Part shown: piece after piece, positions 19,993 through 34,994 of the stretch
How the letters are laid out: each line of letters opens with the position of its first letter
How positions within the stretch are numbered: position 1 is the first letter of the stretch
Source of the DNA: an uncultured Holophagales bacterium
GTDB taxonomy: Bacteria > Acidobacteriota > Thermoanaerobaculia > UBA5066
Length of the DNA stretch: 64,000 bases
Reading direction: 5' to 3'
Assembly: GCA_964384675.1 (NCBI GenBank)
Contig: CAYLNK010000001.1
Location: forward strand, 5,518-69,517
Notes under the pieces: generated by a model
What the model was told of the DNA's origin: nothing
Database searches by the model: none
The model's input: only the letters and a program-made list of their open reading frames with translations
Translations under genes and position numbers: made by a program

Positions 19993-20091
19993 CGAGGCCG
20001 TGAGACTCGTGGGCCGTGGTGTAGCATCTGATGAACAACCGTTTGGGCACGAACGATCGCGGCGGAGCCGCAACTCGGGAGGAGCCGTCCC

Positions 20092-23000
20092 ATGGACCTG
20101 ACGACTCGAGGCAGACGTGTCGCATCCCTGGCGAGAGGCCCCGCGCGAATCCTCCTCCTCGCCGGCGTGGTCCTCGCCGGCTCCCGGGCACACGCCCAGA
20201 CCGTGACGTCGTTCACGGCGAACCCGCTGGCGGTCCCGCCGCGAGGGATCACCCAGCTCTCGTGGACCTCGACGGGCGCCACCCATTGCCTCCTCAACTG
20301 GGCGGCCGCGACGGCCTCGGGGACCTTCGGGAACGGGCCCGCCAACGGAGGGTTCACGGCGACGATGCCCGACGTGGCGATCACGTTCACGCTGATCCCG
20401 TACGCGGGGGCCGTCGCCGGTACCCCCAAGAGCGTCACGGTGGACGTGACGGTCGTGACGTCGATCACCGCGACACCTCCGACGGTGACCCCCGGCGGGT
20501 CGACGGTCATCGCCTGGACCACCACGGGGGCCACCTACTGCGAGATCCAGTACACCTCGGCGTCCGGCGGCGGGGGCGCGGGTAACCAGCCCGCCAACGG
20601 ATCGCGATCCTACAACCCCATCGAGACGACGACCTACAAGGTCACTCCGTACTTCGGGGGTGTCGGGGGTGTCGGAGGCGTCGCCGGCACTCCGGCCAGC
20701 GTCACCGTCACCGTGATGGAGGAGACCCTGGCGGTGGTGACGTCGATCACCGCGACGCCTCCGACGGTCAGCCCCGGCGGCGCGACGGTGATCGCCTGGA
20801 CCACGTCGGGCGCCACTTCCTGCACGATCAGCTACACCTCGGCGAGCGGCGGCGGGGGCCAGGGTCCCCTGCCTGCCAACGGGTCTCTCCCTTACAACCC
20901 CGTCGAGACGACGACCTACACGGTCACCCCGTACGCGGGCGTCACCGTCGGAGTCCCGATGAGCGTGACGGTCACGGTGACCCAGGCCGCGACGCCCGTG
21001 ATGACGTCGTTCACGGCGACGCCGTCGACGATCGTCCCCGGGGGTTCGTCCGTCCTCTCGTGGACGTCCACCGGCGCGGCGGACGTCCTCCTCGAGCCGG
21101 GTATCGGGCCCAGCCCCGCGAACGGCTCGGTCACGGTGACGCCATCGGCCACCACCACGTACAAGGCCACGGCCTACACGGCAATGGGGGTCGGCTCCAC
21201 ACCCCTCACCACCACGGTGACCGTGGGTCCCGCCAGCATGAAGGTGCCGGTCGTCACGAACGTCCGCGCGTCCCAGCTCCCGGACGGAACCGGGGACGTG
21301 CGGATCGACTACGACCTCGAGGTCCCCGCGGGGGCGACCACGGCCGCCACCAGCCTCCTCATCTCCCCGGATGGGGGCCAGACGTTCCCGATCGTCCCCG
21401 TCGCCGGCGCGCTGGTGGGAGACGCCGGAGCCGCGATCGCGGCGGGGGCCCGTGTGATCGGCTGGAAGGCGAGCCAGACGCTCCCGAAGGTCGACGCCTT
21501 CTACGTCGCCGCCGTCGAGGCCCGGATCGACGGCACCGCTCGCGCGGTCTCGGCGCCGTTCCGCATCAATCTCCAGAACTCGAAGCTGCCGACCGCCGCG
21601 TTCAGCTTCAGCCCGGCCAGCCCGAAGGCGGGAGAGTCGGTGACGTTCAAGGACGAGTCGCGTCTCTGTCCGACCAGCGCCGCGTGCGGCGCCTCGATCG
21701 CCTGGGACTTCGGGGACGACGGGACGGTCGACTCGCGCAGCGCCACCGTCGCCAAGACGTTCGCGGCCGGGGCATCGGTGAGGGTGAAGCTGACGGCGAC
21801 GAACTCCTACGGGTCGGACTCCACCGTCCGGACGGTGACGGTCGCCCCGCCCGCGGCGACGCCGGTCGTGACGCGTGTGCGCCGGACGCCCGCGGGCGTC
21901 TACCTCGACTCGAACGCGTTCGACGTGGAGCTCGCGGCCGACGTCACCTGGAACGGCGCTCCCGGGACGGTCGAGTTCCGGCTCCCGGGGAAGCCGGCGG
22001 TCAGCAAGACCGGGACGGCGACGGGCGCGAGCCACAAGTTCCGCTCGCCGACCGACTTCAAGACGGGCTTCACGGCGACCGAGGTCACCATCACGGCGGT
22101 CAACGCCGCCGGGGCGCGGAGCGCGCCGTTCACGGAGTCGGTGTGGGTCTTCCCGTGGCCCTCGTGGCTGAACGGCCTGGGCGGCGTCTCGGTCACCCAG
22201 AACGGGCAGGGGACGACCTTCTCTCGCACGTTCCAGATTCCCTCGTCCCCCCTCTTCGGGACCATCACCATCCCGAGCGCCGTCCCGTTGCTCGACGGCG
22301 AGAGCGGGCTCACCGAGACGTACTGCCGCGGCACCGTCTCGGCGTCGACGTACGGGACAGCCAGCGGCTACGCCCGATGTGATACGGGGTTCGCCGTCGC
22401 CGGCAAGGAGGTGGACGGCAACTTCACCCTGGACGGCACGTTCAGCCTCGGCGCGCCCAAGGGGTTCAAGCTCGATCGGCTGGAGATCACCGGGTCGCTG
22501 AGCGGCACGGTGAAGAAGGAGAAGAAGCTCGGCGAGGTCTTCCCGAAGCTGAAGAAGCTCGAGAAGAAGAAGATCATCGGCGGCCCGATCAAGAGGCTGA
22601 ACGAGACCGTGACGCTCTCGCTCGAGGCGAGCCCGTACCTCGAGGCGAACCTGCTGCTCGTCGACCGGAACGGGACCGTCGACTGGAGCGGGACGCTCGC
22701 GGCCGGCCTCGAGCTGAAGGTGATGGGCCGGATCAAGATCATCCCCGGCGTCCAGGGCCGGGTCTGGATCTCCGGGAAGGGGGACGTCGTCCTCGGCTTC
22801 CAGGCGCCGGTCCTCCGGAGCTACGTCCTCAACGCCGAGCTCGGGGCCGCCCTCGAGATCAACTTCTTCATCTACAAGGACGAGTTCTCCGCCAAGGTCG
22901 ACGTGACCTGCTCCGGTTCGGCCACGAAGGCGTTCGGCTGCAAGCTCGACGCGTCCACACGGCCGGGGGAGGACCTCCTCGCGGCCGGCGACACCGACGG

Positions 23001-26000
23001 CTTCCGCGTGATCCCGCGGACGTACGAGCTCTTCGGGCCGGCGGTGCGGGTCGTCGACCGTCCGCGGCTTCGCACCATGGCCGGGACGCTCACGGGGACC
23101 TCCGGGACCTCGCTCGTGGAGAACGTCTTCGCGGGGGCCGCGCCCCAGCTCGTCCCGCTCGGAGACGGGACGTCGCTCCTCCTCTTCGTGGAGGAGAACC
23201 TCTCGCTGCCGCGCCAGCAGGCGCCCGACGTCGCCTGGTCGATCCTGACCAACGGGTCGCCCTCGGCGCCCCAGAAGATCGCCGCCGACACCCGGCTGGA
23301 GAGCGAGCCGGTCGTGGCGCGCGACGCGGCCGGGAAGGTGGTGGCGGCCTGGACCCGCATCAAGGGCTCGAACGCGGCGGCGCCGGTCACCGACGAGGAC
23401 CTCGCCGCCTTCAACAAGAGCCGCGAGGTCGTCACGTCGGTCTATGACGTCGCGGCGCGCCGCTGGAGCGAGCCTGTCGCCCTCACCGACGACGACGCCT
23501 TCGACACGGGCCTGGTGATGGGCTCCGACGGGCAGGGTCGCGTGGTGCTGAGCTGGCTCTCGATCCCGGACGGCAGCTTCGAGTCGTCGGCCGACTCGCC
23601 GGCCCGCGTGAGGTCGGCGACCTGGAACGGGCAGAGCTGGTCCGCGGTCGCCGATGCCGCCACCGGCCTCGTCGGGGCGCGAAGCCTCGCGGGAGGCTTC
23701 GGGAACGGCAAGGGGGCGCTGGCCGTAGTGCGTGCCGTCTCCGACACGTCCGACTCGATCGACGTCGTCCGATTCACCGCCGGCACCTGGAGCGCGCCGC
23801 AGGGCCTCCCCGGCGCGGGACAGGTGAATCGTTCGCCGGCCGTCGCGTTCGACGCCACGGGCCGGCTCCACGTGGTCTGGAACCGCGACGGGGACCTCGT
23901 GCACTCGATCGATCTCGGCTCGCCGGCCGTGGTGCGGCAGGGCAGCGACTCGATCTCCCTGCTGGGGCCCGTCCTCGCACCCACGCCCGACGGCGGGCTC
24001 GTGCTCGTCTGGACCGAGGCGGGCAAGGACCGGCCCGCGCAGCTGGCCGGCCTCGTCTTCGACCCGAAGACCGGCTCCTGGAGCCGTGACCTGGGCCTCT
24101 CGGCCGACCCGGGCTCCATGGCCTCGGCCGTCGCGTTGTCGGTGGAGCCGCAGGGGACCGTCAAGATCTCGTACCTCTCGACCCAGGCCGTTTCCCGTGA
24201 CGTGACCCTGGAGGACGGGACCGTGATCGCCATTCCCGAGGAGGGGCGTCACGACATCACCGTCCTCGAGGTCCCGATCGTCACCGACCTGGCCGTCACC
24301 GAGGGATCGGCGAAGACCGAGCCCGTCCGCCCCGCGCCCGGCGAAGCCGTGGTGCTGACGGCCGAGGTCCGCAACTCCGGCAGTCTCCCCGTGGCGACTC
24401 CGGTCAAGGTCCGGGTGCTGGTCGGCGCGAACGAGGCGACCGCCTCGACCGTCGGCGAGACCGTCCTGCAGGCGCCGCTGCCCGGAGGCGAGCGTCGCTC
24501 GGTGTCCGTTCCCTACACGTTCCCGGCCTCGGGCGGCGCGACCTTCGTCGTCGTCGACCCTGAGAACGAGGTGCCCGAGTTCACGAAGGCGAACAACAGG
24601 GCCACCGTCTACACCGACAACCGGCCTCCCGTCGCCGTCGCCTCGGCCGACAGGACCGTCGGTGCCGTTCCGCTCGGTGTCGGCTTCTCCGCGAGTGAGA
24701 GCGCCGACCCCGACGGGGACTCCCTGAGCTACGTTTGGGACTTCGGCGACGGCTCGGCGCCCGCGAGCGGCGCCAGCGTCTCGCATTCCTTCACGCGGGG
24801 CGGTGTCCGGGCGGTCTCGCTCACCGTCACCGACAGCCGGGGCGCCTCCTCGACCGCGGTCGTGACGATCACGGCGGGCGAGAGCATCCCCGCCATCGAC
24901 ACGGTCAGTCCCGCCTCGGGCCCCACGGCCGGCGGGACGACGATCACCATCAGCGGCTCCCGCTTCGGCGCCGGCGCGCGCGTGCTCATCGGGGGCGCCC
25001 CGGCCCGATCGGTCAAGGTCGTCGACGCCACGACGATCGTGGCCGAGACGCCGTCGAGCGAGGCCGCGATCGTCGACGTGACCGTCGTGAGCGGGGACGG
25101 CGCGGCGTCCACGGCCCCGGGCGTCTTCCAGTACGTCCCCGGCACCGCCACTACCGAGCAGCTGGTCCCGATCGTCCTCGACGTCGACACGGGCCGGGAC
25201 CACTTCCGCTCCCAGGCGACCCTCACCAACCGCGGCACGACGCCCGTGACCGCCCGGCTCACCTACACGCCCACCTTCAGCGATCAGAAGGGCGGAGGGT
25301 CGATCGACGTGACGCTGGGCGCGGGCCAGCAGCGCGTCCTCGACGACGTCCTCGGATACCTCAGAGCCCAGGGCCTCCCCATCCCGCAGGCCAGCCAGGC
25401 TGCCCCTCAGGGGGGCACGCTGGCCCTTCGCTTCTCCGGGGCGTCCTCCGTGGACGCCGTGGCGATGACGACCCGCACCGGAGCCGAGACCGCTGCACCG
25501 CAGCCGGTCGGACGGGCCGGCCTGGCCTACGCCGGCGTCCCGTCGTCCCGGGGCGTCACGACGGAGGCCACGCTCTTCGGCCTGCGGCACGACGAGAAGG
25601 ACCGCAGCAACGTCGCCATCGCCAACACCACCGGCGACCCGCTGCGGGTCCGCGTCATCGCCGCGTCCGGCTCCGGCGACGGGAAGAAGGTCGTCGTCCG
25701 CGACGCGCTCGACCTTCCACCCTTCGGCTGGGCCCAGCTCTCCAGCGTCCTCGCGACGGCCGGCATCACCCAGGGCTGGGTCACGGTCGAGCGAACGGGA
25801 ACGACCGGCGCCTTCGCCGTCTACGGGGTCGTCAACGACAACGGGACCGGCGACGGGTCGTACGTCTTGCCGACCGTCCGGGGCGTGTCGGGGTCCTCGA
25901 TCACGGTCCCGGCCCTCGTCGAGACGGGCGCGTTCGAAAGCGAGCTCGTGCTGGCCAACCGCGGCACACGGCCGGCGCTCCTGACGCTTCGCTACCTCGA

Positions 26001-26706
26001 GTCCCTCTCCCCGAACGAGGGGGCCGGCGGCACGGCGAGCCTCACGCTCCAGCCGGGGACCCAGCTGATCATCCCGAGCGCCATCGACGACCTCCGGAAG
26101 CGCGGTCTCGCCATCGGCGCCCGCGACGCGGCCGGGTACGTCGGCGCGCTGCGGGTGACCGTGAGCAGCGCCGCCCTCGAGGACGTCTTCGCCGGGGCCC
26201 GCACCGCCTCGCCCTCTCCCGCCGGCGGACAGTTCGGTCTCTTCACGCCGGGTGTCTACGAGGGGCAGGAGGCCGGCGCCGCCGCCTACCTCTACGGGCT
26301 CCGGGCCGACTCGATCAATCGCTCCAACGTCGCGGTCGTCCACGCCGGGAGCGAGGACAGCTCACCCATCACCCTCGAGATGCAGGCGTACGACGGCGAC
26401 CGCCAGGGCGCCCCCGCGGGCTCGCCCTGGACCGCGACGCTCGTTCCGGGCCAGTGGTTCCAGGCCTCGAACTTCCTTTCGATCTCCGGGGTCTCGAACG
26501 GCTGGGTCAAGATCACCCGGACCGTCGGGGCCTCGCCCTGGATCGCTTACGGGGTCGTCAACGACGGCGGCAAGCCGGGCGAGCGTACGGGCGACGGCGC
26601 GTTCGTCCCCATGGTGACCGACATCCCCACGAATCCGCCGGCGACCGTCGCGGCGAGGTCAGGGCCGCCCGAGCCTCGTTCGAAGGTCGGGGCGCAGACT
26701 CGATGA
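20092..26706 (+). CDS. Giant secreted multidomain protein (2204 aa): Ig-like tandem repeats, PKD, CARDB-like and IPT/TIG domains, plus two C-terminal copies of the uncharacterised ~235-aa domain.
   Basis: RBS GGGAGGAG lies 8 nt upstream of ATG 20092. Signal peptide ARILLLAGVVLAGSRAHAQ. Four ~90-aa repeats follow (VTSITATPPTV.PGG.TVIAWTT.GAT.C.I.YTSASGGGG...TTTY.VTPY). PKD at IAWDFGDDGTVDS and VWDFGDGSAPASG. IPT/TIG at IDTVSPASGPTAGGTTITISGSRFG. The C-terminal repeats are at nt 25156-25866 and 25885-26621. Confidence 0.85.
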   Translation: MDLTTRGRRVASLARGPARILLLAGVVLAGSRAHAQTVTSFTANPLAVPPRGITQLSWTSTGATHCLLNWAAATASGTFGNGPANGGFTATMPDVAITFTLIPYAGAVAGTPKSVTVDVTVVTSITATPPTVTPGGSTVIAWTTTGATYCEIQYTSASGGGGAGNQPANGSRSYNPIETTTYKVTPYFGGVGGVGGVAGTPASVTVTVMEETLAVVTSITATPPTVSPGGATVIAWTTSGATSCTISYTSASGGGGQGPLPANGSLPYNPVETTTYTVTPYAGVTVGVPMSVTVTVTQAATPVMTSFTATPSTIVPGGSSVLSWTSTGAADVLLEPGIGPSPANGSVTVTPSATTTYKATAYTAMGVGSTPLTTTVTVGPASMKVPVVTNVRASQLPDGTGDVRIDYDLEVPAGATTAATSLLISPDGGQTFPIVPVAGALVGDAGAAIAAGARVIGWKASQTLPKVDAFYVAAVEARIDGTARAVSAPFRINLQNSKLPTAAFSFSPASPKAGESVTFKDESRLCPTSAACGASIAWDFGDDGTVDSRSATVAKTFAAGASVRVKLTATNSYGSDSTVRTVTVAPPAATPVVTRVRRTPAGVYLDSNAFDVELAADVTWNGAPGTVEFRLPGKPAVSKTGTATGASHKFRSPTDFKTGFTATEVTITAVNAAGARSAPFTESVWVFPWPSWLNGLGGVSVTQNGQGTTFSRTFQIPSSPLFGTITIPSAVPLLDGESGLTETYCRGTVSASTYGTASGYARCDTGFAVAGKEVDGNFTLDGTFSLGAPKGFKLDRLEITGSLSGTVKKEKKLGEVFPKLKKLEKKKIIGGPIKRLNETVTLSLEASPYLEANLLLVDRNGTVDWSGTLAAGLELKVMGRIKIIPGVQGRVWISGKGDVVLGFQAPVLRSYVLNAELGAALEINFFIYKDEFSAKVDVTCSGSATKAFGCKLDASTRPGEDLLAAGDTDGFRVIPRTYELFGPAVRVVDRPRLRTMAGTLTGTSGTSLVENVFAGAAPQLVPLGDGTSLLLFVEENLSLPRQQAPDVAWSILTNGSPSAPQKIAADTRLESEPVVARDAAGKVVAAWTRIKGSNAAAPVTDEDLAAFNKSREVVTSVYDVAARRWSEPVALTDDDAFDTGLVMGSDGQGRVVLSWLSIPDGSFESSADSPARVRSATWNGQSWSAVADAATGLVGARSLAGGFGNGKGALAVVRAVSDTSDSIDVVRFTAGTWSAPQGLPGAGQVNRSPAVAFDATGRLHVVWNRDGDLVHSIDLGSPAVVRQGSDSISLLGPVLAPTPDGGLVLVWTEAGKDRPAQLAGLVFDPKTGSWSRDLGLSADPGSMASAVALSVEPQGTVKISYLSTQAVSRDVTLEDGTVIAIPEEGRHDITVLEVPIVTDLAVTEGSAKTEPVRPAPGEAVVLTAEVRNSGSLPVATPVKVRVLVGANEATASTVGETVLQAPLPGGERRSVSVPYTFPASGGATFVVVDPENEVPEFTKANNRATVYTDNRPPVAVASADRTVGAVPLGVGFSASESADPDGDSLSYVWDFGDGSAPASGASVSHSFTRGGVRAVSLTVTDSRGASSTAVVTITAGESIPAIDTVSPASGPTAGGTTITISGSRFGAGARVLIGGAPARSVKVVDATTIVAETPSSEAAIVDVTVVSGDGAASTAPGVFQYVPGTATTEQLVPIVLDVDTGRDHFRSQATLTNRGTTPVTARLTYTPTFSDQKGGGSIDVTLGAGQQRVLDDVLGYLRAQGLPIPQASQAAPQGGTLALRFSGASSVDAVAMTTRTGAETAAPQPVGRAGLAYAGVPSSRGVTTEATLFGLRHDEKDRSNVAIANTTGDPLRVRVIAASGSGDGKKVVVRDALDLPPFGWAQLSSVLATAGITQGWVTVERTGTTGAFAVYGVVNDNGTGDGSYVLPTVRGVSGSSITVPALVETGAFESELVLANRGTRPALLTLRYLESLSPNEGAGGTASLTLQPGTQLIIPSAIDDLRKRGLAIGARDAAGYVGALRVTVSSAALEDVFAGARTASPSPAGGQFGLFTPGVYEGQEAGAAAYLYGLRADSINRSNVAVVHAGSEDSSPITLEMQAYDGDRQGAPAGSPWTATLVPGQWFQASNFLSISGVSNGWVKITRTVGASPWIAYGVVNDGGKPGERTGDGAFVPMVTDIPTNPPATVAARSGPPEPRSKVGAQTR
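20197..21235 (+). repeat. Intragenic tandem repeat array of about 280 nt (4 units) encoding Ig-like ~90-aa modules in the giant gene.
   Basis: Units begin near 20197, 20452, 20735 and 21001. Units 2 and 3 are about 80% identical at nucleotide level (gtgacgtcgatcaccgcgacaccTccgacggtgacccccggc vs gtgacgtcgatcaccgcgacgccTccgacggtcagccccggc). Confidence 0.6.
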
Positions 26707-26716
26707 AGAGCCTCTC

Positions 26717-27775
26717 TCAGGAGTCGAGCCTTCGGCCCGTCGCGGCGTCGAACCAGTGGAGGCTGGCGCGCGGGATCCGGACCGAGAGCGTTCCGTTGGA
26801 GGAGCGGATGCGCGTCAGGGCCCGGAGGCGGAGCCGCCCGATCCGGATCGTCAGGAGCGTGCGGTCCCCCTGTGGCTCCTCCAGCTCCACCGTGCCCTCG
26901 AGCCCGTCGTCGAGCGGCCCCTCTCCCACCTCCACGTCCTCGGGACGGATCCCGGCGCAGAGCTCCGTCCCGTCGCGCAGCCCCGGCGGGAGCGGAAGGC
27001 GTGTCCCTTCCGAGACGAACTCCGTTCCTTCGGCCCTTCCCCTCCAGACGGTCATCCGCGGTGACCCGACGAAGGTAGCGGTGAAGAGGTCGGCCGGCCG
27101 CCGGTAGAGCTCCTCGGGCGGGGCGGCCTGGAGCACCTTTCCGTCCTTCAGCGCCAGGACCTCGTCGGCGAGGCTCATCGCCTCCGACTGGTCGTGTGTG
27201 ACGTAGAGGACGGTGGCACCGAGCCGCCGGAAGAGCGACTTCAGCTCGGCGCGCATCTCCTCGCGAAGGAGGGCATCGAGGTTCGAGAGCGGCTCGTCCA
27301 TCAGGTAGAGGCGCGGCCGCCGGATCAGTGCGCGTCCGACGGCCACCCGCTGCTGCTGCCCTCCCGACAGCTCGGCGGGGTGGCGCGAGAGAAGGCCCGT
27401 CAGGCCGAGGAGCTGCGCCGTCTCGGCGACCCTCTGCGCGATCTCCGCGCGCGGCAGGCGCCGGACCTCGAGCGCGAGCGACAGGTTGCGGGACACCGTC
27501 AGGTGCGGGTAGAGGGCGTAGCTCTGGAAGACGAAGCCGACGTCGCGTGCGCCGGCATCGACGCCGTCGAGGGGGCGGCCGTCGAGCGTCAGCGTCCCCG
27601 ACGTCGCGGTCTCCAGGCCGGCCACGACCCGCAGCAGCGTCGTCTTCCCGCACCCCGACGGGCCGAGGAGCGCGAGGACCTTCCCTTCTGCGGCTCGGAA
27701 CGAAACGCCGTCCAGGGCGCGTGTCCCGCCCGCGAACACCTTGGTCAGGCCGGTGCCGACGAGCTCGCCCGGCAC
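26717..27775 (-). CDS. Sugar ABC importer ATP-binding protein (MalK/UgpC family).
   Basis: Walker A LLGPSGCGKTT, signature LSGGQQQRVAVGRAL, Walker B LYLMDEPLSNLD, and a C-terminal MalK-type regulatory/TOBE domain. Proposed GTG start (MPGELVGTGLTKVF...) lies 2 nt after the upstream permease stop. The longer track ORF (to 28405) overlaps the permease. Confidence 0.85.
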   Translation of the reverse strand: MPGELVGTGLTKVFAGGTRALDGVSFRAAEGKVLALLGPSGCGKTTLLRVVAGLETATSGTLTLDGRPLDGVDAGARDVGFVFQSYALYPHLTVSRNLSLALEVRRLPRAEIAQRVAETAQLLGLTGLLSRHPAELSGGQQQRVAVGRALIRRPRLYLMDEPLSNLDALLREEMRAELKSLFRRLGATVLYVTHDQSEAMSLADEVLALKDGKVLQAAPPEELYRRPADLFTATFVGSPRMTVWRGRAEGTEFVSEGTRLPLPPGLRDGTELCAGIRPEDVEVGEGPLDDGLEGTVELEEPQGDRTLLTIRIGRLRLRALTRIRSSNGTLSVRIPRASLHWFDAATGRRLDS

Positions 27776-27777
27776 GC

Positions 27778-28623
27778 TCAGCCCTTCACCGCGCCGCGCG
27801 TCAGCCCGCTCGCGATGCGCCGCTCGAAGAGGAGGACGAGGAGGACGAGCGGCACGGTCGCCACGACGACCGCCGCCGAGAGCTGTCCCCAGGGGACCTC
27901 GAACGTCGAGGAGCCCGTGACGCTCGCGATCCCGGCCGTCACGGTCTTCCTCGCGTCGCGGGTCAGGAACGTCAGCGCCAGCAGGAACTCGTTCCACGAG
28001 TAGATGAAGACGAGGATCGCCGCCGTGACCGCGGACGGCGCGGCGAGCGGCAGGTGGATCCGGAAGACGCGCCGCGCGGGACCGAGCCCGTCCAGGACGG
28101 CGGCCTCGTCGACCGCGCGGGGGATCTGGCGGAAGCCGCTCTCGAGGATCCAGACCGAGAGCGGGAGGTTGAGCAGCGCGTACGGGAGGATCAGGGCGAT
28201 CGGGTTGTTCAGCCACCCGAGCGCCCGCACGGCCTCGTACGTCGGGAAGAGGAGGAGGATCGGAGGAACGAACGCGAGCGCCAGGAGCGCCACGAGCCAG
28301 CGCTCCCGCGCCCGGACCGTGGCGCGGGTGAGCGCGCCGGCCGCCAGGGCGCCCAGGGTCACCGACAGCAGCGTCGACACCGCCGCAACCACCGCGCTGT
28401 TCCATAGGTACGTCGCGAACGGCTTCCTCGTGAACAGCGCCTCGACGTGGCGGAGCGTGGGCGGGCTCGGCAGGTAGACGGTCGGCACGCGGGTGATCTG
28501 GGCGTCCGGCTTCAACGCCGTCAGGACCTGCCAGACGCCGGGCGCCAGGCTCCAGACCACGAGGAGCCCGACGGCGAGGCCGGGAAGGAGCCGGCGCACC
28601 TTCCCTTCCGCAACGGACGTCAC
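27778..28623 (-). CDS. ABC sugar importer permease (MalG/UgpE-like).
   Basis: About 281 aa with 6 TM segments. EAA loop DEAAVLDGLGPARRVFRIHLPLAAP. GTG start (MTSVAEGKVRRLLPGLAVGLLVVWSL) overlaps the upstream stop (GTGA). The remainder of track ORF 27778..32055 is artefact. Confidence 0.85.
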   Translation of the reverse strand: MTSVAEGKVRRLLPGLAVGLLVVWSLAPGVWQVLTALKPDAQITRVPTVYLPSPPTLRHVEALFTRKPFATYLWNSAVVAAVSTLLSVTLGALAAGALTRATVRARERWLVALLALAFVPPILLLFPTYEAVRALGWLNNPIALILPYALLNLPLSVWILESGFRQIPRAVDEAAVLDGLGPARRVFRIHLPLAAPSAVTAAILVFIYSWNEFLLALTFLTRDARKTVTAGIASVTGSSTFEVPWGQLSAAVVVATVPLVLLVLLFERRIASGLTRGAVKG

Positions 28624-30635
28624 GTCCGCCTCCAGCGGGGTCGGGCGAGCCGCACCACCGCGCCCGCCAGGAGGGCCGCGGGCAGGAAGCCGTTGACCGC
28701 GATCCAGGCTCCGTGCGCGGGGTCGAGGTAGCGGAAGTAGGTCTGGAACGCGTAGAGAGAGACCGTCTCGGTGGAGCCGCCCGGGCCGCCGCCGGTCATC
28801 ACGTAGACGATGTCGAAGGCGCCGTACGCCTGGACCGCGCGGAAGAGCGCCGCCGCCAGGATCGACGGCGAAAGGAGCGGCAGGACGACGTGCCAAAAGC
28901 GCGGCCATGCGCCGAGCCCGTCCATCCGCGCGGCCTCCAGCACCTCGCCCGGGATCCCCTGCAGGCCGGCGAGGATGATCAGCGCGACGAATGGCGTTGT
29001 CTTCCAGACGTCGGCCACCACGAGGGCCGCCATCGCGGTGCCGGGCGAGCTCAGCCAGGCGATGGGCCGCGAAACGAGACCGAGGCGTCCGAGGAGGTCG
29101 TTCGCCACGCCGAAGGAATCGTTGAAGATCCAGGCCCACGCCAGGGCCATCACCGCGGTGGGGAGCGCCCAGGGCAGCAGCGTGAGGGCCCGTACGAGTC
29201 CCCGGCCGCGGAAGCGAAGGTGGAGGAGCAGCGCGATCCCGAGGCCGAGGAGCGTCTCGAGCCCCACCGACGCCGTCGTGAAGAGCGCGGTGTTCCGGAG
29301 CGACGAGAGGAACCGCCCGTCGCGCCACGGCCGGAGGGCTCCGCTCTCGGCCCCGCCCGGCGCCAGGAGGAGACGCGTCTCCCGGGCCGCGGCGCCGAGG
29401 GCCTCGGACGGGGTCGCGAGACCCGCGAGGGCGGCGCTCAGGTGTCGCTGGAGGATGTCCGACGCCATCGCGTAACGGGGGATCACGGGGCGCGCCAGCG
29501 CCGCCTCGTGGATCCGCAGAAGCTCGGGAAGGAACGGATTCGCGGCGAGGAGCGTCGGGTCGCGGTACGCCTCGGCGAGCGCGGGGGCGTAGCCCGTCTC
29601 GCGACAGAGAGCCCGCTGGCCGGGGAGCGACACCACGTGACGGATGAAGTCCATCGCGAGCCGGGGGTGACGGCTGAAGCGTGAGACGCCGAGGCCCCAG
29701 CCGCCGAGAGTCCCCGCGCTCTCGCCTCCCGGCGTGTGCACCATCGGGACGACCCCGACCTTGCCGGCCACCGGCGAACCGGGCGCCTGGGCGAGGCGCC
29801 AGACGTACGGCCAGTTGCGCAGGAAGACCGCGCGGCCGTCCTGGAAGAGCCGCCGGCTCTCGTCCTCCTTGTAGGCGGTCACACCGGGCGGGCTGATCGG
29901 GTCCTGCCCGGAGCGGCACCTGCGGAGGAACTCGAGCGCCTGGGTGGCCTCCTTCCGGTCGAGGCCGACCTCCAGCGTGTCGGGGTTGACCCAGAAGCCT
30001 CCGAAGCCGCGCAGGACCTCCTGGTAGTCGCACACCAGCCCCTCGTACTGGCTTCCTTGCCACACGAAGCCCCAGAGCGCGGGTGGCTTCTGGAGGGCGC
30101 GCGCGGCCCGCTCGAGGTCGTCGAACGTGAGCGGCGGGGGGAGCCCGGCGGTCTCCAGGAGGTCTCGGCGATAGAAGAGCACGCCGACGTCGGTGCGCAC
30201 CGGGATGCGGTACAGGTGCCCGCGATAGCGGCCCGCGTCCACCGCCGCGGGCAGGAGCCTCGCGAGGTCGCCGGCGGGGAAATCCGCCTCCAGCGGGAGC
30301 AGCCACCGCGCGAACTTGGGCGTCCACGTCACGTCCATGTAGACGAGGTCGAGGGACTCGTCGCCCGCCACGAGCGAGGACGTGTAGAGGTTCTCGCGCA
30401 GGTCCGTGGCGTTCGGACCCTCCACGACGTCCACCGCGACACCGGGACGCGACGCCTCGAAGTCCTTCGCGATCCGGACCCAGACGTCCCGGTCGCTCGC
30501 GAGGACCAGGAACGAGAGGCGGCGCGTCTCGCCGGGCGGCCCGTCCGCGCGGACGGGGAGGGCCGCTGCCACGATTGCCGCGGCGGCCAGGAGACGCGTC
30601 GCGAGTCGGCGAACGGTCGTGGCGCCGGGCGTCAT
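28620..30635 (-). CDS. Natural fusion of a family-1 extracellular solute-binding protein to a MalF/UgpA-type permease (671 aa).
   Basis: N-terminal signal peptide MTPGATTVRRLATRLLAAAAIVAAALPVRA and an SBP_bac_1-like domain of ~420 aa run uninterrupted into permease TM2-TM6. The permease part carries the EAA loop EAARMDGLGAWPRFWHVVLPLL. The usual TM1 and first periplasmic loop are absent. Confidence 0.75.
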   Translation of the reverse strand: MTPGATTVRRLATRLLAAAAIVAAALPVRADGPPGETRRLSFLVLASDRDVWVRIAKDFEASRPGVAVDVVEGPNATDLRENLYTSSLVAGDESLDLVYMDVTWTPKFARWLLPLEADFPAGDLARLLPAAVDAGRYRGHLYRIPVRTDVGVLFYRRDLLETAGLPPPLTFDDLERAARALQKPPALWGFVWQGSQYEGLVCDYQEVLRGFGGFWVNPDTLEVGLDRKEATQALEFLRRCRSGQDPISPPGVTAYKEDESRRLFQDGRAVFLRNWPYVWRLAQAPGSPVAGKVGVVPMVHTPGGESAGTLGGWGLGVSRFSRHPRLAMDFIRHVVSLPGQRALCRETGYAPALAEAYRDPTLLAANPFLPELLRIHEAALARPVIPRYAMASDILQRHLSAALAGLATPSEALGAAARETRLLLAPGGAESGALRPWRDGRFLSSLRNTALFTTASVGLETLLGLGIALLLHLRFRGRGLVRALTLLPWALPTAVMALAWAWIFNDSFGVANDLLGRLGLVSRPIAWLSSPGTAMAALVVADVWKTTPFVALIILAGLQGIPGEVLEAARMDGLGAWPRFWHVVLPLLSPSILAAALFRAVQAYGAFDIVYVMTGGGPGGSTETVSLYAFQTYFRYLDPAHGAWIAVNGFLPAALLAGAVVRLARPRWRRT

Positions 30636-30644
30636 GGCGCAACC

Positions 30645-32258
30645 CTACACGGCGGTCCCGGCAGCCGGCACCAGGTGGATCGTCCGGGTCGGGAACGCGA
30701 ACGAGCTGCCCTCCGACTCCACGATCGCCATCAGCTCGAGGAGCATCGCCTGGCGGATCCCCAGGAACTCCCCCCAATCGGTCGTGAGGAACCAGGCCAT
30801 GACGAGGACGTTCAGCGAGGAGTCGCCGAACCCCTGGAACGCCACGGTCACCGAATCGGGCCAGATCTTGGGGTGCTCGCGCAGCGCCGATTCGATCCGG
30901 GCGAGGATCCGGCGCATCTGGTCGGAGCTGGTGTCGTAGGTCAGGCCGATGTCCACCGCCAGCCGCAGCCGGTCGCGCTCGGCGAACGACTCGATGCGCT
31001 GCTCGGCGAGCCGTCCGTTCGGGATGGAGACGAGCGTGCGGTCCAGGGTGCGGATCCGCGACGACCGCAGGCCGATCCGTTCCACGACCCCGAAGACGTC
31101 TTCGACCTTCACGAGGTCTCCCTCGCGGAATGGCTGGTCGACCCCGATGGAGACGGAGCCGAAGAGGTGCTCCACCGTCTTCTGCGCCGCCAGCGCGAGG
31201 GCGAGGCCGCCGATTCCGAGCCCGGCGAGGAGGCTCGCCACCGGATAGCCCAGGGTCGCGAGGGCCGAAACGACGGCGAGCGCCGAGAGCAGGACCTTGG
31301 CGATCCGGGTCGAGAGAGGCACGAGCCCGCGGACCGAGGGCCGCTGCGCGGCCCACGTCGAGCCGGTGACCGCCTGGCCGGTGAGGTCCACCGTACGGAG
31401 CGCGGCCCAGAAGACCACGAGGAGGAGGCCGGAGACGCGGAGGCTCCCGACGAAACGCTGTGCCGGGGCGTAGAGCGAAAGGGCGGCGAGCGGAAACGGA
31501 ACGACGACGAGGCTCCAGGCGAGCGCCAGGGGGCGCCCCAGGCGTGCGAGGAGCGTGTCGTCGAGCGTCGACTCGGACCGCGCGGCCATGCGCCCGAGCA
31601 GCGTGGTCGTGACTCTCCCGAGCGGCAGTCCGGCGCCGTAGCTCAGGAGGAGGACGAGCGGGAGCGCGAGCCACTGCCACCACAGGAGCTCGCCCGGGCC
31701 CGGCCTGAGGAGCGGCGCCGGGAGGTGCTCGAGCACCCACCGGTTCCCCACGGCGCCGTACTGGACGTCGATCCGGCCGACGGTGGCACGCGTGAAGAGC
31801 CAGCGGGCTCCGTCCGGTCCCGAGCGCCTCACGAGCCTCACGGGCTGACGGACCCCGCCGGCGAAGGGGAGCGTGGTCAGCTCCTCGACGCCCGCCGGCA
31901 GCCCGTCGTCTTCTCGGCCCTCCGGGAGCGCCGAGAGGTCGTCGGGCTCGAGCCACACGTGGGCGTCCAGAACCGCTTTCAGCCGGCGCGCCAGCTCGGG
32001 GCCCCGGGACACGTCCGCCGCGGGAAGCTCGAGGTATCGGGCCGCCTCCTCCCACCGTCCCGCCCGCGCCAGCTCGAGATACGAGATCACGGCGGCACGC
32101 GGGGAATCGGGCGAAGGGCGGTCCGCGGGCTCGGTCGCGGCTGGCGTGGGCTCGGGAGGACCTGCCGCCCGGAGGGGCGGCCCGAGGATCACGGCGAGCG
32201 CCAGGACGCTCGCGACGCGCACGCGGCCATGGCGGGGGAGCCGAACGGGGGGCGTCAT
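30645..32258 (-). CDS. Mechanosensitive ion channel, MscS family, with an N-terminal periplasmic domain.
   Basis: 537 aa. Signal/TM then periplasmic region. TM helices lead into the MscS core (...GIGGLALALAAQKTVEHLFGSVSIGVDQPFREGDLVKVEDVFGVVERIGLRSSRIRTLDRTLVSIPNGRLA...). Confidence 0.85.
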   Translation of the reverse strand: MTPPVRLPRHGRVRVASVLALAVILGPPLRAAGPPEPTPAATEPADRPSPDSPRAAVISYLELARAGRWEEAARYLELPAADVSRGPELARRLKAVLDAHVWLEPDDLSALPEGREDDGLPAGVEELTTLPFAGGVRQPVRLVRRSGPDGARWLFTRATVGRIDVQYGAVGNRWVLEHLPAPLLRPGPGELLWWQWLALPLVLLLSYGAGLPLGRVTTTLLGRMAARSESTLDDTLLARLGRPLALAWSLVVVPFPLAALSLYAPAQRFVGSLRVSGLLLVVFWAALRTVDLTGQAVTGSTWAAQRPSVRGLVPLSTRIAKVLLSALAVVSALATLGYPVASLLAGLGIGGLALALAAQKTVEHLFGSVSIGVDQPFREGDLVKVEDVFGVVERIGLRSSRIRTLDRTLVSIPNGRLAEQRIESFAERDRLRLAVDIGLTYDTSSDQMRRILARIESALREHPKIWPDSVTVAFQGFGDSSLNVLVMAWFLTTDWGEFLGIRQAMLLELMAIVESEGSSFAFPTRTIHLVPAAGTAV

Positions 32259-32325: not shown

Positions 32326-32871
32326 TCAGCCCGCGCCGGAGCCCTTCTCGTCGCGACGCTTTCCGGCGTCCCTCCGAAGCCCCCGTTCCAGGGACCCGGC
32401 GAGCGACGCCAGCACCTCGCTCGTGACGGCGATACTCTCGGCGGGAATACGGGCGAGGGCGCTCTCGACGGCCGCCTCGATCGTTCCGGCCGAGCGCCTG
32501 TCCACCGCACGCCCCTTGGCGGTCAAGCTGAAGAGCGCCAGGCGGCCATCCCGGGGATCGCCCTTTCGCTCGACGAAACCGCCCTTCTCCAGGCGCGCGA
32601 GGACCCCGCTGAGCGTGCTGGGGTGAAGGAGGATGGTCCGGGCGAGCCGCCCGGCCGGGATCCCCGGGAAGCTCCCGATGATCCGGATGGCCAGCCGCTG
32701 CGGCCCGGTGACGCCGACGGAGCGCAGCATCCGTTTGGAGCTTCGTTGCAGGCCGTGGTCGAGCGCCCACAGCAGCCGCAGGAACTCGAGGGCGCTCCCG
32801 AGCGGCGGGACGTCCCGCTCCGCGGCGGACGTCCGCCGGCGTGCGCCTGGGGGGGACTTCAGGGACGACAT
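32326..32871 (-). CDS. MarR-family transcriptional regulator.
   Basis: About 181 aa. Winged-HTH region ...LRLLWALDHGLQRSSKRMLRSVGVTGPQRLAIRIIGSFPGIPAGRLARTILLHPSTLSGVLARLEKGGFVERKGDPRDGRLALFSLTAKG... The 5' end of track ORF 32326..35478 is artefact. Confidence 0.8.
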   Translation of the reverse strand: MSSLKSPPGARRRTSAAERDVPPLGSALEFLRLLWALDHGLQRSSKRMLRSVGVTGPQRLAIRIIGSFPGIPAGRLARTILLHPSTLSGVLARLEKGGFVERKGDPRDGRLALFSLTAKGRAVDRRSAGTIEAAVESALARIPAESIAVTSEVLASLAGSLERGLRRDAGKRRDEKGSGAG

Positions 32872-34994
32872 GGCGCGAGGATTTTTGCACGCCGGATCGA
32901 GCTCGTTGCCCTGAGGGCGACCCCGGCGATTCCCGCTGCGACGGCCCACCAGCCGGGGAGGCTGAGCGGATCTCGAGGGGGCGCTGGCGGAGCGATCCGC
33001 CGCGGCAGACGCTCGAACACCACGAGCGCAGGAGGCTGCCCAACCTCTCCCAGCGGCCGGCCAACGCCGCCGGGGAAACGTCCCTCGAGGACGGGAAGCA
33101 GGTCCCTCTCGTCGTACAGCAGGACCGCGGCCGGCGGCGTGAGATCCAGGCGCCCGCTCAGGACGTCCTGGCGGGTCGCGTCGCGGCCGTTCTGGTCCGC
33201 CCCGAAGAAGCGGAACGGATGCTCGCTCCAGCGGAACTCGTGGCTCACGAGGTAGACCCGAGAGCCGGAGGGGAGAGCATCGACGTATCGCGCTCCCCGG
33301 GCGCGGGGACCTTCGCCGCTGCTGGCGAACCCGACGTAGACCTCCCAGTTCTGGATTCCGAGCGGGACCAGACCTGCGACCAGGGCCGCGACGCCGAGCC
33401 GCCGTGAGCTCGGGCCGTCGGGCAGGAGACCGGACACGGCCTGAACCGCCCCCAGCGCCGCGAGGAGAGACACCGCCGGAAGGGCGATGTTCAGGTGCGG
33501 CCAGTACGGCGGATCGGCCGTGAGGACGCCTCCCAGGAAGAGCGTCAGAAAGACCCACAGGACGGCGACCGCGCGCGACAAGTTCCTCGGCCGGGCCAGG
33601 GCGAAGCCGGTTCCGAGGACGAGGAAGATCGAGGCCGGCGCACTGACCATCGGACGTCGCAGGCTGAAGTGGGGGCTTCCGTCGCCGAACAGGTGGAACG
33701 TCAGGAAGGTGTCGCGCGCCTGGTAGAGGAGGACCTCTAGGACGCTGCCCGCCTCGTACTTCGCCATCGTGTGCGAGAGGACGTACGGGTTCCAGATCGC
33801 GACCTCGGTGCCGCGCCCGGCGAAGGATGCGAAATCGGTGGCCGGGATCGCGATCTTGGGACCGAAGACGACCAGCGTCGTCGTCGCGAGAAGCGTCCAG
33901 CCGCGCCAGGCCCGCCTGAACCCGCCCCGGTCGAAGAGCGCCTGCCAGAGGGCGGTGGCGGCGACCAGTACCGGCCCGACCCGGCTGGAGTCGTAGTTGA
34001 ACAGTCCGAACGACAGAACGGCTCCCGAGAGCGCGAACGCGAGCGGCGCCCCGGTCCTGAGCCCCGCGATGAGGAGCACCAGCGCGAGCGTGAGGCACAG
34101 CGTGGCGATCGGCCCGAACAGCGTACGGCTGAAGTGGATGTGGGTGTAGCTGATGGCGAGCAGCCCGGATGCGACGAGCCCTTCGGCTCGCCCGAACAGG
34201 GCCCGGCCGAGGAGGTACAGGATGGGGATGGTCGCGGTCCCGGCGAGCACCGAAGGCATGACGAGCCCGTAATAGTCCCGACCGAACAGGCGCATGCCGA
34301 GCGCGATCACCTGGTGCATGGAGGCGGGGTGCTGCGAGGCGGCCAGGCCCAGCCACCGGCCGGGCTCCGTCGCCATCATCTCGAGCGTGACGTTCCCCAT
34401 CAGGGCGATGTCGGGATGGACATGCGCCGGCAGGTCGGCGACGTCGTGGCAGCGGAGCCAGAAGCCCGCGAGCGTGACGACGGAGACGAGGCCCCACTCC
34501 CACGCCGGATGGCCCACGACCCCGAGGAAGCGCCGGTCTCTCAGGGCGATAGGGAGCAGGAGCAGGACGATCGCCGCCAGCCAGAGCCACCTCACTCCGG
34601 GTGACTCGCCGGAGCGGACGAAGAGCGTGACGGAGCTGGCGTAGCAAAGCCCCGAGGCCGCGAGCGCCGCCGCGATGGCGGGGCTCCGCGCGCCGCAGAT
34701 CGCCTGCGTCGGGACAGTCAGCGAGCCGATCGTCCCGTGCGCCTGAAACGCTCTGGTGGCCGCGGCGACTCCGGCCAGGAGAAGGAGAGAGGCCGCCGTG
34801 TAGCGGGGCGGCCAGTCCCAGGTCTGGGTGTCCCGGTTCCGGGTCAGGAGCTCGCCCGTGAACAGGTACTGGGCCACGAACGCGAGCGCCAGGGCGACCC
34901 CGATGAGCAACGGCCGCCGCCGGTCGGGGCCCGGCCCCACGGCAGCCAGGATGTTGCCCGGTGCGAAGACCGTCGCCTCGTCGCTGCTCCGCAC
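32859..34994 (-). CDS. Large polytopic membrane protein, putative GT-C-fold glycosyltransferase (ArnT/PMT/GT39-like), with a C-terminal periplasmic domain.
   Basis: 711 aa, at least 12 hydrophobic helices, with an Arg/Asp-rich first loop. It overlaps the marR start by about 13 nt. The family assignment is weak. Confidence 0.45.
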   Translation of the reverse strand: MRSSDEATVFAPGNILAAVGPGPDRRRPLLIGVALALAFVAQYLFTGELLTRNRDTQTWDWPPRYTAASLLLLAGVAAATRAFQAHGTIGSLTVPTQAICGARSPAIAAALAASGLCYASSVTLFVRSGESPGVRWLWLAAIVLLLLPIALRDRRFLGVVGHPAWEWGLVSVVTLAGFWLRCHDVADLPAHVHPDIALMGNVTLEMMATEPGRWLGLAASQHPASMHQVIALGMRLFGRDYYGLVMPSVLAGTATIPILYLLGRALFGRAEGLVASGLLAISYTHIHFSRTLFGPIATLCLTLALVLLIAGLRTGAPLAFALSGAVLSFGLFNYDSSRVGPVLVAATALWQALFDRGGFRRAWRGWTLLATTTLVVFGPKIAIPATDFASFAGRGTEVAIWNPYVLSHTMAKYEAGSVLEVLLYQARDTFLTFHLFGDGSPHFSLRRPMVSAPASIFLVLGTGFALARPRNLSRAVAVLWVFLTLFLGGVLTADPPYWPHLNIALPAVSLLAALGAVQAVSGLLPDGPSSRRLGVAALVAGLVPLGIQNWEVYVGFASSGEGPRARGARYVDALPSGSRVYLVSHEFRWSEHPFRFFGADQNGRDATRQDVLSGRLDLTPPAAVLLYDERDLLPVLEGRFPGGVGRPLGEVGQPPALVVFERLPRRIAPPAPPRDPLSLPGWWAVAAGIAGVALRATSSIRRAKILAPCRP

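Follow-up and report, generated by a model that had tools for sequence, protein, structure and literature searches.

A solute-binding protein fused in frame to a CUT1-type permease without its first transmembrane helix: a probable tethered-receptor sugar importer in Thermoanaerobaculia

Introduction

Does a gene that runs without interruption from a periplasmic receptor into a membrane subunit without its first helix encode part of a working sugar importer, or is it an accident of assembly or of genome decay? The question is raised by an open reading frame (ORF) for 671 amino acids (aa) in a 64,000-nucleotide stretch of DNA from an uncultured Holophagales bacterium (Acidobacteriota; Thermoanaerobaculia), the whole of which we call the window. 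The first-pass annotation of this stretch, made from the letters and the ORF translations, described the product as a solute-binding protein (SBP) of family 1 fused to a MalF/UgpA-type permease that lacks transmembrane helix 1 (TM1), and suggested a tethered-SBP importer.

Tethered substrate-binding domains (SBDs) are central to mechanistic work on ATP-binding cassette (ABC) importers, as in GlnPQ and OpuA. To our knowledge, the well-studied importers with tethered SBDs are all homodimers with two or four receptors and belong to amino-acid or osmolyte families. We are fairly confident that the locus in the window encodes something else, namely a functional type I importer of the CUT1 sugar family, of the MalFGK2 or LpqY-SugABC kind, whose single SBP is covalently tethered to one of two different membrane subunits.

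Results

The fusion gene lies on the minus strand at positions 28620–30635, with an ATG start and a TGA stop at 28620–28622. The ORF list, Pfam and alignment agree that its one product leads from an SBP signal peptide through a full family-1 SBP into permease helices TM2 to TM6, as originally described. Within this single chain Pfam places SBP_bac_1 at aa 51–336 (3e-28), SBP_bac_8 at aa 55–365 and BPD_transp_1 at aa 462–670 (1.3e-21). The signal peptide (aa 1–30, 30546–30635), which aligns with the signal peptide of an unfused SBP, has an n-region with RR, a hydrophobic h-region, LLAAAAIVAAALPV, of about 14 residues, and a signal-peptidase-I-like site, VRA/DG; a lipobox Cys is absent. It is followed by a complete family-1 solute-binding domain (aa 31–424, 29364–30545), of the alpha-glucoside (trehalose/maltose) type by homology and an AlphaFold2 (AF2) model. 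A linker, APGGAESGAL (aa 425–434, 29334–29363), which is coil in the model and was also delimited by junction comparison, connects the last SBP helix to an amphipathic segment that precedes TM2. The junction had been estimated at about nt 29350–29450; it lies slightly downstream of that estimate.

The permease moiety (aa 435–671, 28623–29333), defined by alignment, hydropathy and the AF2 model, consists of the amphipathic segment, TM2 (about 448–471), TM3 (479–517), TM4 (531–559), a coupling helix, TM5 (576–608) and TM6 (639–664). Both motifs noted at first are in place: the TM2 string LRNTALFTTASVGLETLLGLGIALLL corresponds to aa 446–471, and the EAA motif EAARMDGLGAWPRFWHVVLPLL to aa 567–588, within the EAA loop and coupling-helix region (aa 563–588, GEVLEAARMDGLGAWPRFWHVVLPLL, 28872–28949) located by motif. 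As read from the sequence, TM2 is followed by a basic cluster, HLRFRGRG, and the C-terminus of the protein is basic as well, which fits an out-to-in TM2 and a cytoplasmic C-terminus. Thus, the notion that a periplasmic SBP can lead directly into an out-to-in TM2 without topological conflict holds up well. The SBD and the transmembrane domain (TMD) share one polypeptide, and the SBD is predicted to lie outside.

The extent of the missing part was established by comparison with the closest unfused operon retrieved (L004), which encodes a 427-aa SBP, a 296-aa permease and a 275-aa permease, the stop of its SBP gene overlapping the start of the permease gene. In BLASTP, aa 10–427 of the fusion align with the whole 427-aa SBP, and aa 433–667 with residues 59–292 of the L004 permease, both at 70% identity; about five unaligned residues bridge the two alignments. 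The fusion has nothing that corresponds to permease residues 1–58, which make up the N-tail, TM1 (with a Kyte-Doolittle value of 2.99 in L004) and the beginning of loop 1. Stand-alone permease homologs with 70–79% identity all contain TM1 (e.g. WFLLPAAALLLAVVVVPVARVVQLSF), and matches of the fused permease to reference proteins start late, at position 63 of UgpA (NCBIfam) and at residue 75 of SugA (7CAD_A, PDB). Hydropathy analysis gives the signal-peptide h-region plus five TM helices for the fusion, and six TM helices each for the unfused permease and for the MalG-like partner described below. On re-analysis by BLASTP against L004, hydropathy and AF2, no TM1 was found between the SBP and TM2, in line with what the bare sequence had suggested.

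The AF2 model of the fusion (pLDDT 85.4, pTM 0.79) was obtained from an alignment of 89 sequences (A4) composed of fused proteins, SBP-only proteins and TM1-trimmed permeases. An alignment with full-length permeases (A3) put the permease TM1 under the signal peptide and was left out of folding, and a model from 21 fused sequences alone was unusable (pLDDT 59.5). The A4 model contains a complete SBP fold at aa 38–424 (pLDDT >90; Foldseek TM-score 0.91 against 6DTQ), coil at 425–434, and helices at 440–471, 479–517, 531–559, 563–571 (the coupling helix), 576–608 and 639–664. The permease of the fusion departs from the family norm, a canonical six-TM core with its N-terminus in the cytoplasm. By prediction, it resembles the MetI-like minimal core with five TM helices and the N-terminus outside; the resemblance is one of architecture, not of subfamily membership.

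The gene context supplies the remaining parts of an importer. The fusion gene is followed on the minus strand by a second permease gene of the MalG/UgpE-like type (27778–28623; 281 aa, six predicted TM helices; Pfam BPD_transp_1, NCBIfam MalG/GlcU-like, hydropathy), whose GTG start overlaps the fusion stop (GTGA) and whose product aligns over the EAA coupling region. Next comes, also on the minus strand, a MalK/UgpC-like ATPase gene (26717–27775; 352 aa; Pfam ABC_tran, OB_MalK, TOBE_2) with a C-terminal OB/TOBE regulatory domain; its NCBIfam matches to UgpC (3e-104) and MalK (1e-84) are both under the equivalog cut-offs. The consecutive genes at 26717–30635 thus encode, by Pfam, a family-1 SBP, two BPD_transp_1 proteins and an ABC_tran protein, an order that is kept at homologous loci. 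The MalG-like gene follows the fusion at loci L001, L005, L085 and L024, and MalG-like and MalK-like genes stand directly after the fusion at every fused locus examined. Judged by its gene set, the EAA motif and the MalK-type ATPase, the locus appears to be a type I ABC importer of the CUT1 (MalFGK2–UgpAEC–SugABC) kind.

Structural homologs point to the class of substrate. The best matches of the SBP in PDB are Thermotoga maritima MalE3 (6DTQ, 4e-80) and the Thermococcus litoralis trehalose/maltose-binding protein (TMBP; 1EU8, 5e-76), to which it is 36% identical with TM-scores of 0.88–0.91; a Thermus alpha-glycoside-binding protein is also among the relatives that indicate this class. For the permease, the closest solved homolog is SugA, from the trehalose importer of mycobacteria (1e-34). 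Substrates are likely to be alpha-glucoside disaccharides, e.g. trehalose, maltose or sucrose.

The fusion is not confined to one assembly. Seventeen contigs, the longest of 146 kb, encode an identical 671-aa product within the same operon; they come from one JGI metagenome and two Logan SRA assemblies, so that at least three independent assemblies carry it. The source metagenomes are JGI 3300028842, SRR10823749 and SRR10823760. The orthologous fusions that the first-pass annotation had proposed to look for exist: 20 further clusters at 90% identity (P0002–P0021; NCBI, JGI, ENA and Logan; 63–91% identity) have the same architecture. In total, about 22 ortholog clusters contain the fusion, including the contig-truncated P0121, and such conservation places the architecture far beyond chance. 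One ortholog lies on a 419-kb contig of a GTDB species-representative Thermoanaerobaculia metagenome-assembled genome (MAG), and another on a 405-kb contig, where the neighbouring genes are different. NCBI names the fused members merely 'extracellular solute-binding protein'.

Substitution rates (Nei-Gojobori, three fused orthologs, dS of about 0.6–0.8) gave dN/dS of 0.19–0.29 for the SBP half and 0.17–0.34 for the permease half, which indicates purifying selection on both. The signal peptide, with dN/dS of about 0.8–1.2, evolves as is typical for signal peptides. Among the fused orthologs there is no or almost no variation in the EAA loop and in other permease motifs. The length of the junction between the flanking ETR and RNT motifs is 30–31 aa in 13 of 13 members of the window's subclade, in which the linker sequence varies, and 35 residues in a second subclade.

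The fused proteins have also changed the way in which the signal peptide ends. Of the 56 unfused SBP homologs that could be classified, 52 have a lipoprotein-type Cys at this position, and the remaining four also look like LGC/GG. The same classifier found it in none of the 18 classifiable fused proteins, although P0016 may retain VLAC/G; signal-peptidase-I-like sites, e.g. VRA/DG or RLRA/EE, are present instead. A functional fusion would lead one to expect just this: with a protein tether in place, the lipid anchor is lost. In most fused proteins a twin Arg stands immediately ahead of the h-region (RRLAT, RRIAI, RRITV, RRFAV, RRAFA), as in the window protein (aa 9–10), P0004, P0005, P0007, P0010, P0012 and P0016. 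This may simply reflect Arg-rich n-regions encoded by high-GC DNA, a twin-arginine-translocation-like signal being the alternative.

The distribution of the fusion was surveyed at the 80 best loci, with one genome per GTDB species. Separate SBP and six-TM permease genes were found at 78 of them, including Acidobacteriota at 60–72% and many cyanobacteria at 45–60% identity. A fused ORF is present at the two others: L005, in a Thermoanaerobaculia MAG (82–85% identity), and L024, in a low-GC Thermodesulfobacteriaceae MAG (42–46% identity). The L024 protein has a TM1-less junction, five TM helices and MalG/MalK partners as in the window.

The number of fusion events was estimated from trees built by neighbour joining only, with bootstrap. 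L024 pairs with a metagenomic representative, P0241, in 200 of 200 bootstraps and groups with the window clade in 0 of 200, its nearest neighbours being unfused sequences. This placement points to an independent TM1-less origin, and L024 with P0241 forms a second, probably independent TM1-less lineage; a caveat is that the junction measures 31 residues in both lineages, which may reflect either structural constraint or shared ancestry. The permease tree supports the main fused clade of Acidobacteriota at 54%, the SBP tree does not recover it, and P0021 is not placed, so that one to three fusion events are possible within this phylum.

In a broader search of 1.84 billion representatives, the top 150 matches included six representatives of 50%-identity clusters with SBP and permease in one chain. 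These fall into three layouts, which are three solutions of one topology problem. In layout A, TM1 is deleted, as in P0241. In layout B, the SBP is followed first by an additional linker TM helix and then by a full six-TM permease (P0245, P0246, P0265 and P0349, the last being NCBI protein MFC1734488.1 from a Hydrogenedentota MAG); the extra helix of P0245 is PAAMLAFLLMLTILSLMLF (aa 439–457), which yields a predicted seven-TM subunit. In layout C, the SBP is placed between a genuine permease TM1 and TM2. Its only representative, P0283 (692 aa; Logan, four contigs), starts with a genuine permease TM1, FLIPALLVMAVLVFYPLLKGVYYSF, and carries a GacH/MalE-like SBP in the periplasmic loop where E. 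coli MalF has its P2 loop.

Several other database entries were tried as fusions and turned down. In P0022 and P0024 the C-terminus of the SBP is out of frame and TM1 is still there, which makes them read-throughs or frameshifts of unfused operons. In P0073 the SBP is joined to the end of TM2 and the C-terminus is frameshifted, and P0036, an apparent fusion or oversized SBP, is an SBP with a junk N-terminus. Conversely, P0121 (83% identity) is not a stand-alone permease and is the contig-truncated fragment of a fused gene mentioned above. P0022, P0024, P0073 and P0036 call for caution in any automated census of SBP–permease architecture. Three further proteins, P0243 (885 aa), P0260 (935 aa) and P0295 (836 aa), combine two family-1 SBP domains in tandem and lack a permease domain; by analogy to the tandem SBDs of GlnP they may be tandem-receptor sugar SBPs.

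Could the fusion nevertheless be spurious, or be real and dead? Separate SBP and six-TM permease genes may be wrongly joined by assembly, frameshift or gene calling, and the ground for such errors is favourable here: high-GC DNA yields long spurious ORFs, the region is rich in shadow ORFs, and some database fusions are indeed artefacts, as P0022 and P0024 illustrate, and P0073 with its impossible junction inside TM2. However, a single frame covers the alignments of both halves and no DNA that could code for TM1 is left over between them, the identical protein recurs on 17 contigs from independent assemblies, the architecture is shared by the ortholog clusters, and the purifying selection acts on both halves. 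The Thermodesulfobacteriaceae MAG, whose low GC makes spurious ORFs unlikely, has the same design, which argues in the same direction, and no indel that would restore two separate genes was found, the orthologs keeping the fusion. An artefact is effectively refuted already, and we consider its probability practically negligible. A genuine deletion that left a non-functional, drifting product might be expected on the ground that the loss of one helix from a six-TM permease is usually damaging. It is very improbable given that dN/dS is 0.17–0.34 across both halves at dS of about 0.6–0.8, that there are no stops or frameshifts in the diverged orthologs, that the EAA loop is invariant and the linker length conserved, and that the MalG and MalK partner genes, which overlap or adjoin the fusion, are intact; loss of the lipobox, moreover, looks like a coordinated secondary adaptation.

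The main live alternative concerns the fate of the signal sequence. If it stayed uncleaved, it could serve as a surrogate TM1, and the SBP would then in effect sit inside periplasmic loop 1 of a six-helix subunit, as in layout C; P0283, with its order of permease TM1, SBP and TM2–6, is a natural protein of exactly such logic. The fused clade has swapped the lipobox for a different type of signal, in several members the h-region is directly followed by basic residues (TGRRLPAEE, TAKRLRAEE), which is unusual beside a cleavage site, the h-regions of Thermodesulfobacteriaceae-type members reach about 19–23 residues, and AF2 keeps residues 6–25 helical. On the other side, the h-region of the window protein is short and runs into a canonical VRA/DG site, its N-terminus is homologous to an SBP signal peptide and not to TM1, and near-neutral evolution with variable length is unlike that of a helix that packs specifically. 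We regard retention of the signal helix as unlikely, and cleavage as the probable outcome because the h-region, at about 14 residues, is short and a canonical –3/–1 site comes next.

The surroundings of the operon contain further genes. The fusion gene is preceded by an MscS-like mechanosensitive channel gene (30645–32258, minus strand; 537 aa), which ends 9 nt upstream and, being on the same strand, may be co-transcribed with it; this linkage occurs only on the window organism's own contigs and is not conserved in L005 or L085. The unfused L004 also has an MscS-like gene nearby, together with a sucrose-synthase-like GT-B gene, which hints at a link to the handling of compatible solutes (trehalose/sucrose). 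Gene calls in L001 place a MarR-family regulator (about 32326–32870, minus strand) and a PMT_2-type glycosyltransferase (32859–34994, minus strand; 711 aa) upstream of the MscS gene. Downstream, the ABC operon is adjoined on the opposite strand by a 2204-aa ORF (20092–26706, plus strand) with a signal-peptide-like N-terminus and PKD, CARDB and TIG domains (Pfam), which looks like a giant secreted or surface protein. Between 25000 and 35000 both strands contain many very long overlapping shadow ORFs with Arg/Gly/Pro-rich translations, e.g. 27778–32055 (minus strand, 1425 aa) and 19279–26343 (minus strand, 2354 aa). They are typical of DNA with about 72% GC, so that ORF length alone is no evidence for a gene here.

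Discussion

The fusion of the window is best explained as the tethered membrane subunit of a sugar importer. Its ancestor would have been a lipoprotein SBP gene that overlapped the start of a six-TM permease gene, the arrangement seen in L004. An in-frame deletion would then have removed the SBP stop together with 58 permease residues, from the N-tail through TM1 into the first stretch of periplasmic loop 1. With the SBP in the periplasm and TM2 crossing from outside to inside, removal of TM1 keeps the topology legal. The signal peptide native to the SBP would direct export of the product and probably be cleaved off, and TM2 to TM6 would insert as a five-helix, MetI-like core. The fused subunit would pair with the six-TM MalG-like subunit and a dimer of the MalK-like ATPase; the presence of a distinct second permease gene leads one to expect a heterodimer with one SBD. 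This single tethered domain would capture an alpha-glucoside disaccharide and deliver it in cis, so that each transporter has one receptor, 1:1, in place of the lipid anchor of the unfused relatives.

The tethered-SBP importer proposed at the outset is supported by architecture, conservation, selection and operon partners, and several considerations speak against it. Expression, processing, assembly and transport are all things that we infer. In type I subunits with six TM helices, TM1 lies packed against the partner, as in the structures of ModB and MalG, and its loss could weaken the heterodimer; no compensating change was seen in the MalG-like partner. The bridge between the domains is short (about five residues without a counterpart, about ten of coil in the model), which bears on docking of the SBP to both TMDs. 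The assignment of substrate is based on 30–36% identity to solved SBPs. Finally, we found no second or free SBP gene within the 64-kb window, a negative that covers this window only.

If the tethered-importer reading is true, TM1 of the MalF/UgpA/SugA-type core is not needed, and the system offers a defined 1:1 complex for cryo-electron microscopy and single-molecule Förster resonance energy transfer studies of SBP docking and release within the maltose/trehalose paradigm. The three layouts are a natural experiment on membrane topology as a constraint on gene fusion. For annotation, the name 'extracellular solute-binding protein' hides the permease half, and operons with such genes seem one permease short.

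A more far-reaching view would hold that TM1 of CUT1 permeases is dispensable and that importers with lipoprotein SBPs have repeatedly and independently been converted to single-receptor cis machines by at least three topological routes (TM1 deletion, in the window and in a separate Thermodesulfobacteriaceae-type lineage; a linker TM helix; and loop insertion), with an uncleaved signal helix perhaps filling the TM1 site to give a re-wired six-helix subunit. Proteins of this kind would supply ready-made 1:1 complexes of SBP and translocator for structural and single-molecule work on sugar importers. Taken as a whole, this generalization seems doubtful to us.

Fusion of SBP and TMD is an established theme among importers, and the finding reported here is incremental; it is neither paradigm-changing nor a new principle. 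In the literature that we searched, with incomplete coverage, we found no description of a CUT1 permease that lost TM1 upon fusion to an SBP or of the three-solution pattern, nor any other relevant report on CUT1 fusions or a census of their domain architecture.

The closest solved homologs of the window's parts are LpqY-SugABC (7CAD/7CAE, 8JA7) and the trehalose-maltose systems of T. litoralis and T. maritima. They share with the window the operon logic of an SBP, two permeases and a MalK-like ATPase, and LpqY, like the window's unfused relatives, is fastened to the membrane through a lipid anchor. They differ in that the SBP is separate, as a lipoprotein or a soluble protein, and that SugA has all six TM helices.

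A five-helix permease core as such is familiar. MetI of MetNI has a minimal five TM helices per TMD within a type I importer (PMC4245157), and reviews describe a five-helix minimal core for type I TMDs. MetI, however, is natively five-TM, homodimeric and unfused, whereas the window protein is a CUT1 six-TM permease that has secondarily lost TM1.

The TMD of GlnPQ is a five-helix core with its N-terminus outside. In the Lactococcus lactis protein, a single polypeptide begins with a signal sequence, followed by the SBD(s) and then the N-terminus of the TMD (PMC8025302). It is this domain order of GlnP, namely signal, SBD and an N-out five-TM core, that the window protein has reached by convergence. 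GlnPQ differs in belonging to the PAAT and not the CUT1 family, in its SBP class, and in having two tandem SBDs and hence a homodimer with four, against the expected heterodimer with one in the window. In OpuA, the SBD is located at the C-terminus of the TMD, and the homodimer has two SBDs. OpuA of L. lactis is a type I importer of glycine betaine (OTCN family) with the SBD fused to the TMD (PMC11065425), and it differs from the window protein also in an unrelated SBP class and in substrate. The window system thus lacks the homodimeric TMD with two or four SBDs and lies outside the PAAT and OTCN subfamilies. A curated ABC permease/substrate-binding fusion is also known from Mycoplasma, the PotCD-type protein of the polyamine family (NF043073, MMSYN1_0195); its 1021-residue profile gives a weak partial match, near the profile start, with the MalG-like partner only and not with the fused protein.

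The nearest precedent in design is the MalE-MalF fusion of Bdellovibrio bacteriovorus (MalE-FGK2; Licht et al. 2019, Res Microbiol 170:1, pmid 30193862; MalE domain PDB 6FFL), as summarised in PMC6906923. According to that summary, it has in common with the window a family-1 sugar SBP on a MalF-type subunit, a heterodimeric CUT1 transporter and an SBP:transporter ratio of 1:1. The two are not orthologous: the window SBP matches 6FFL at only 2e-7 against 4e-80 for MalE3, and its permease is a short UgpA/SugA-type core without TM1 and the MalF P2 loop, which matches MalF over core residues 277–455 only. Among the fused proteins tested, the one good match to 6FFL is the SBP part of P0283 (3e-32), the representative of layout C. 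A fusion is thus already known in the CUT1 family, and the novelty is less than the first-pass annotation may have assumed; the design of the window is uncommon, not unprecedented.

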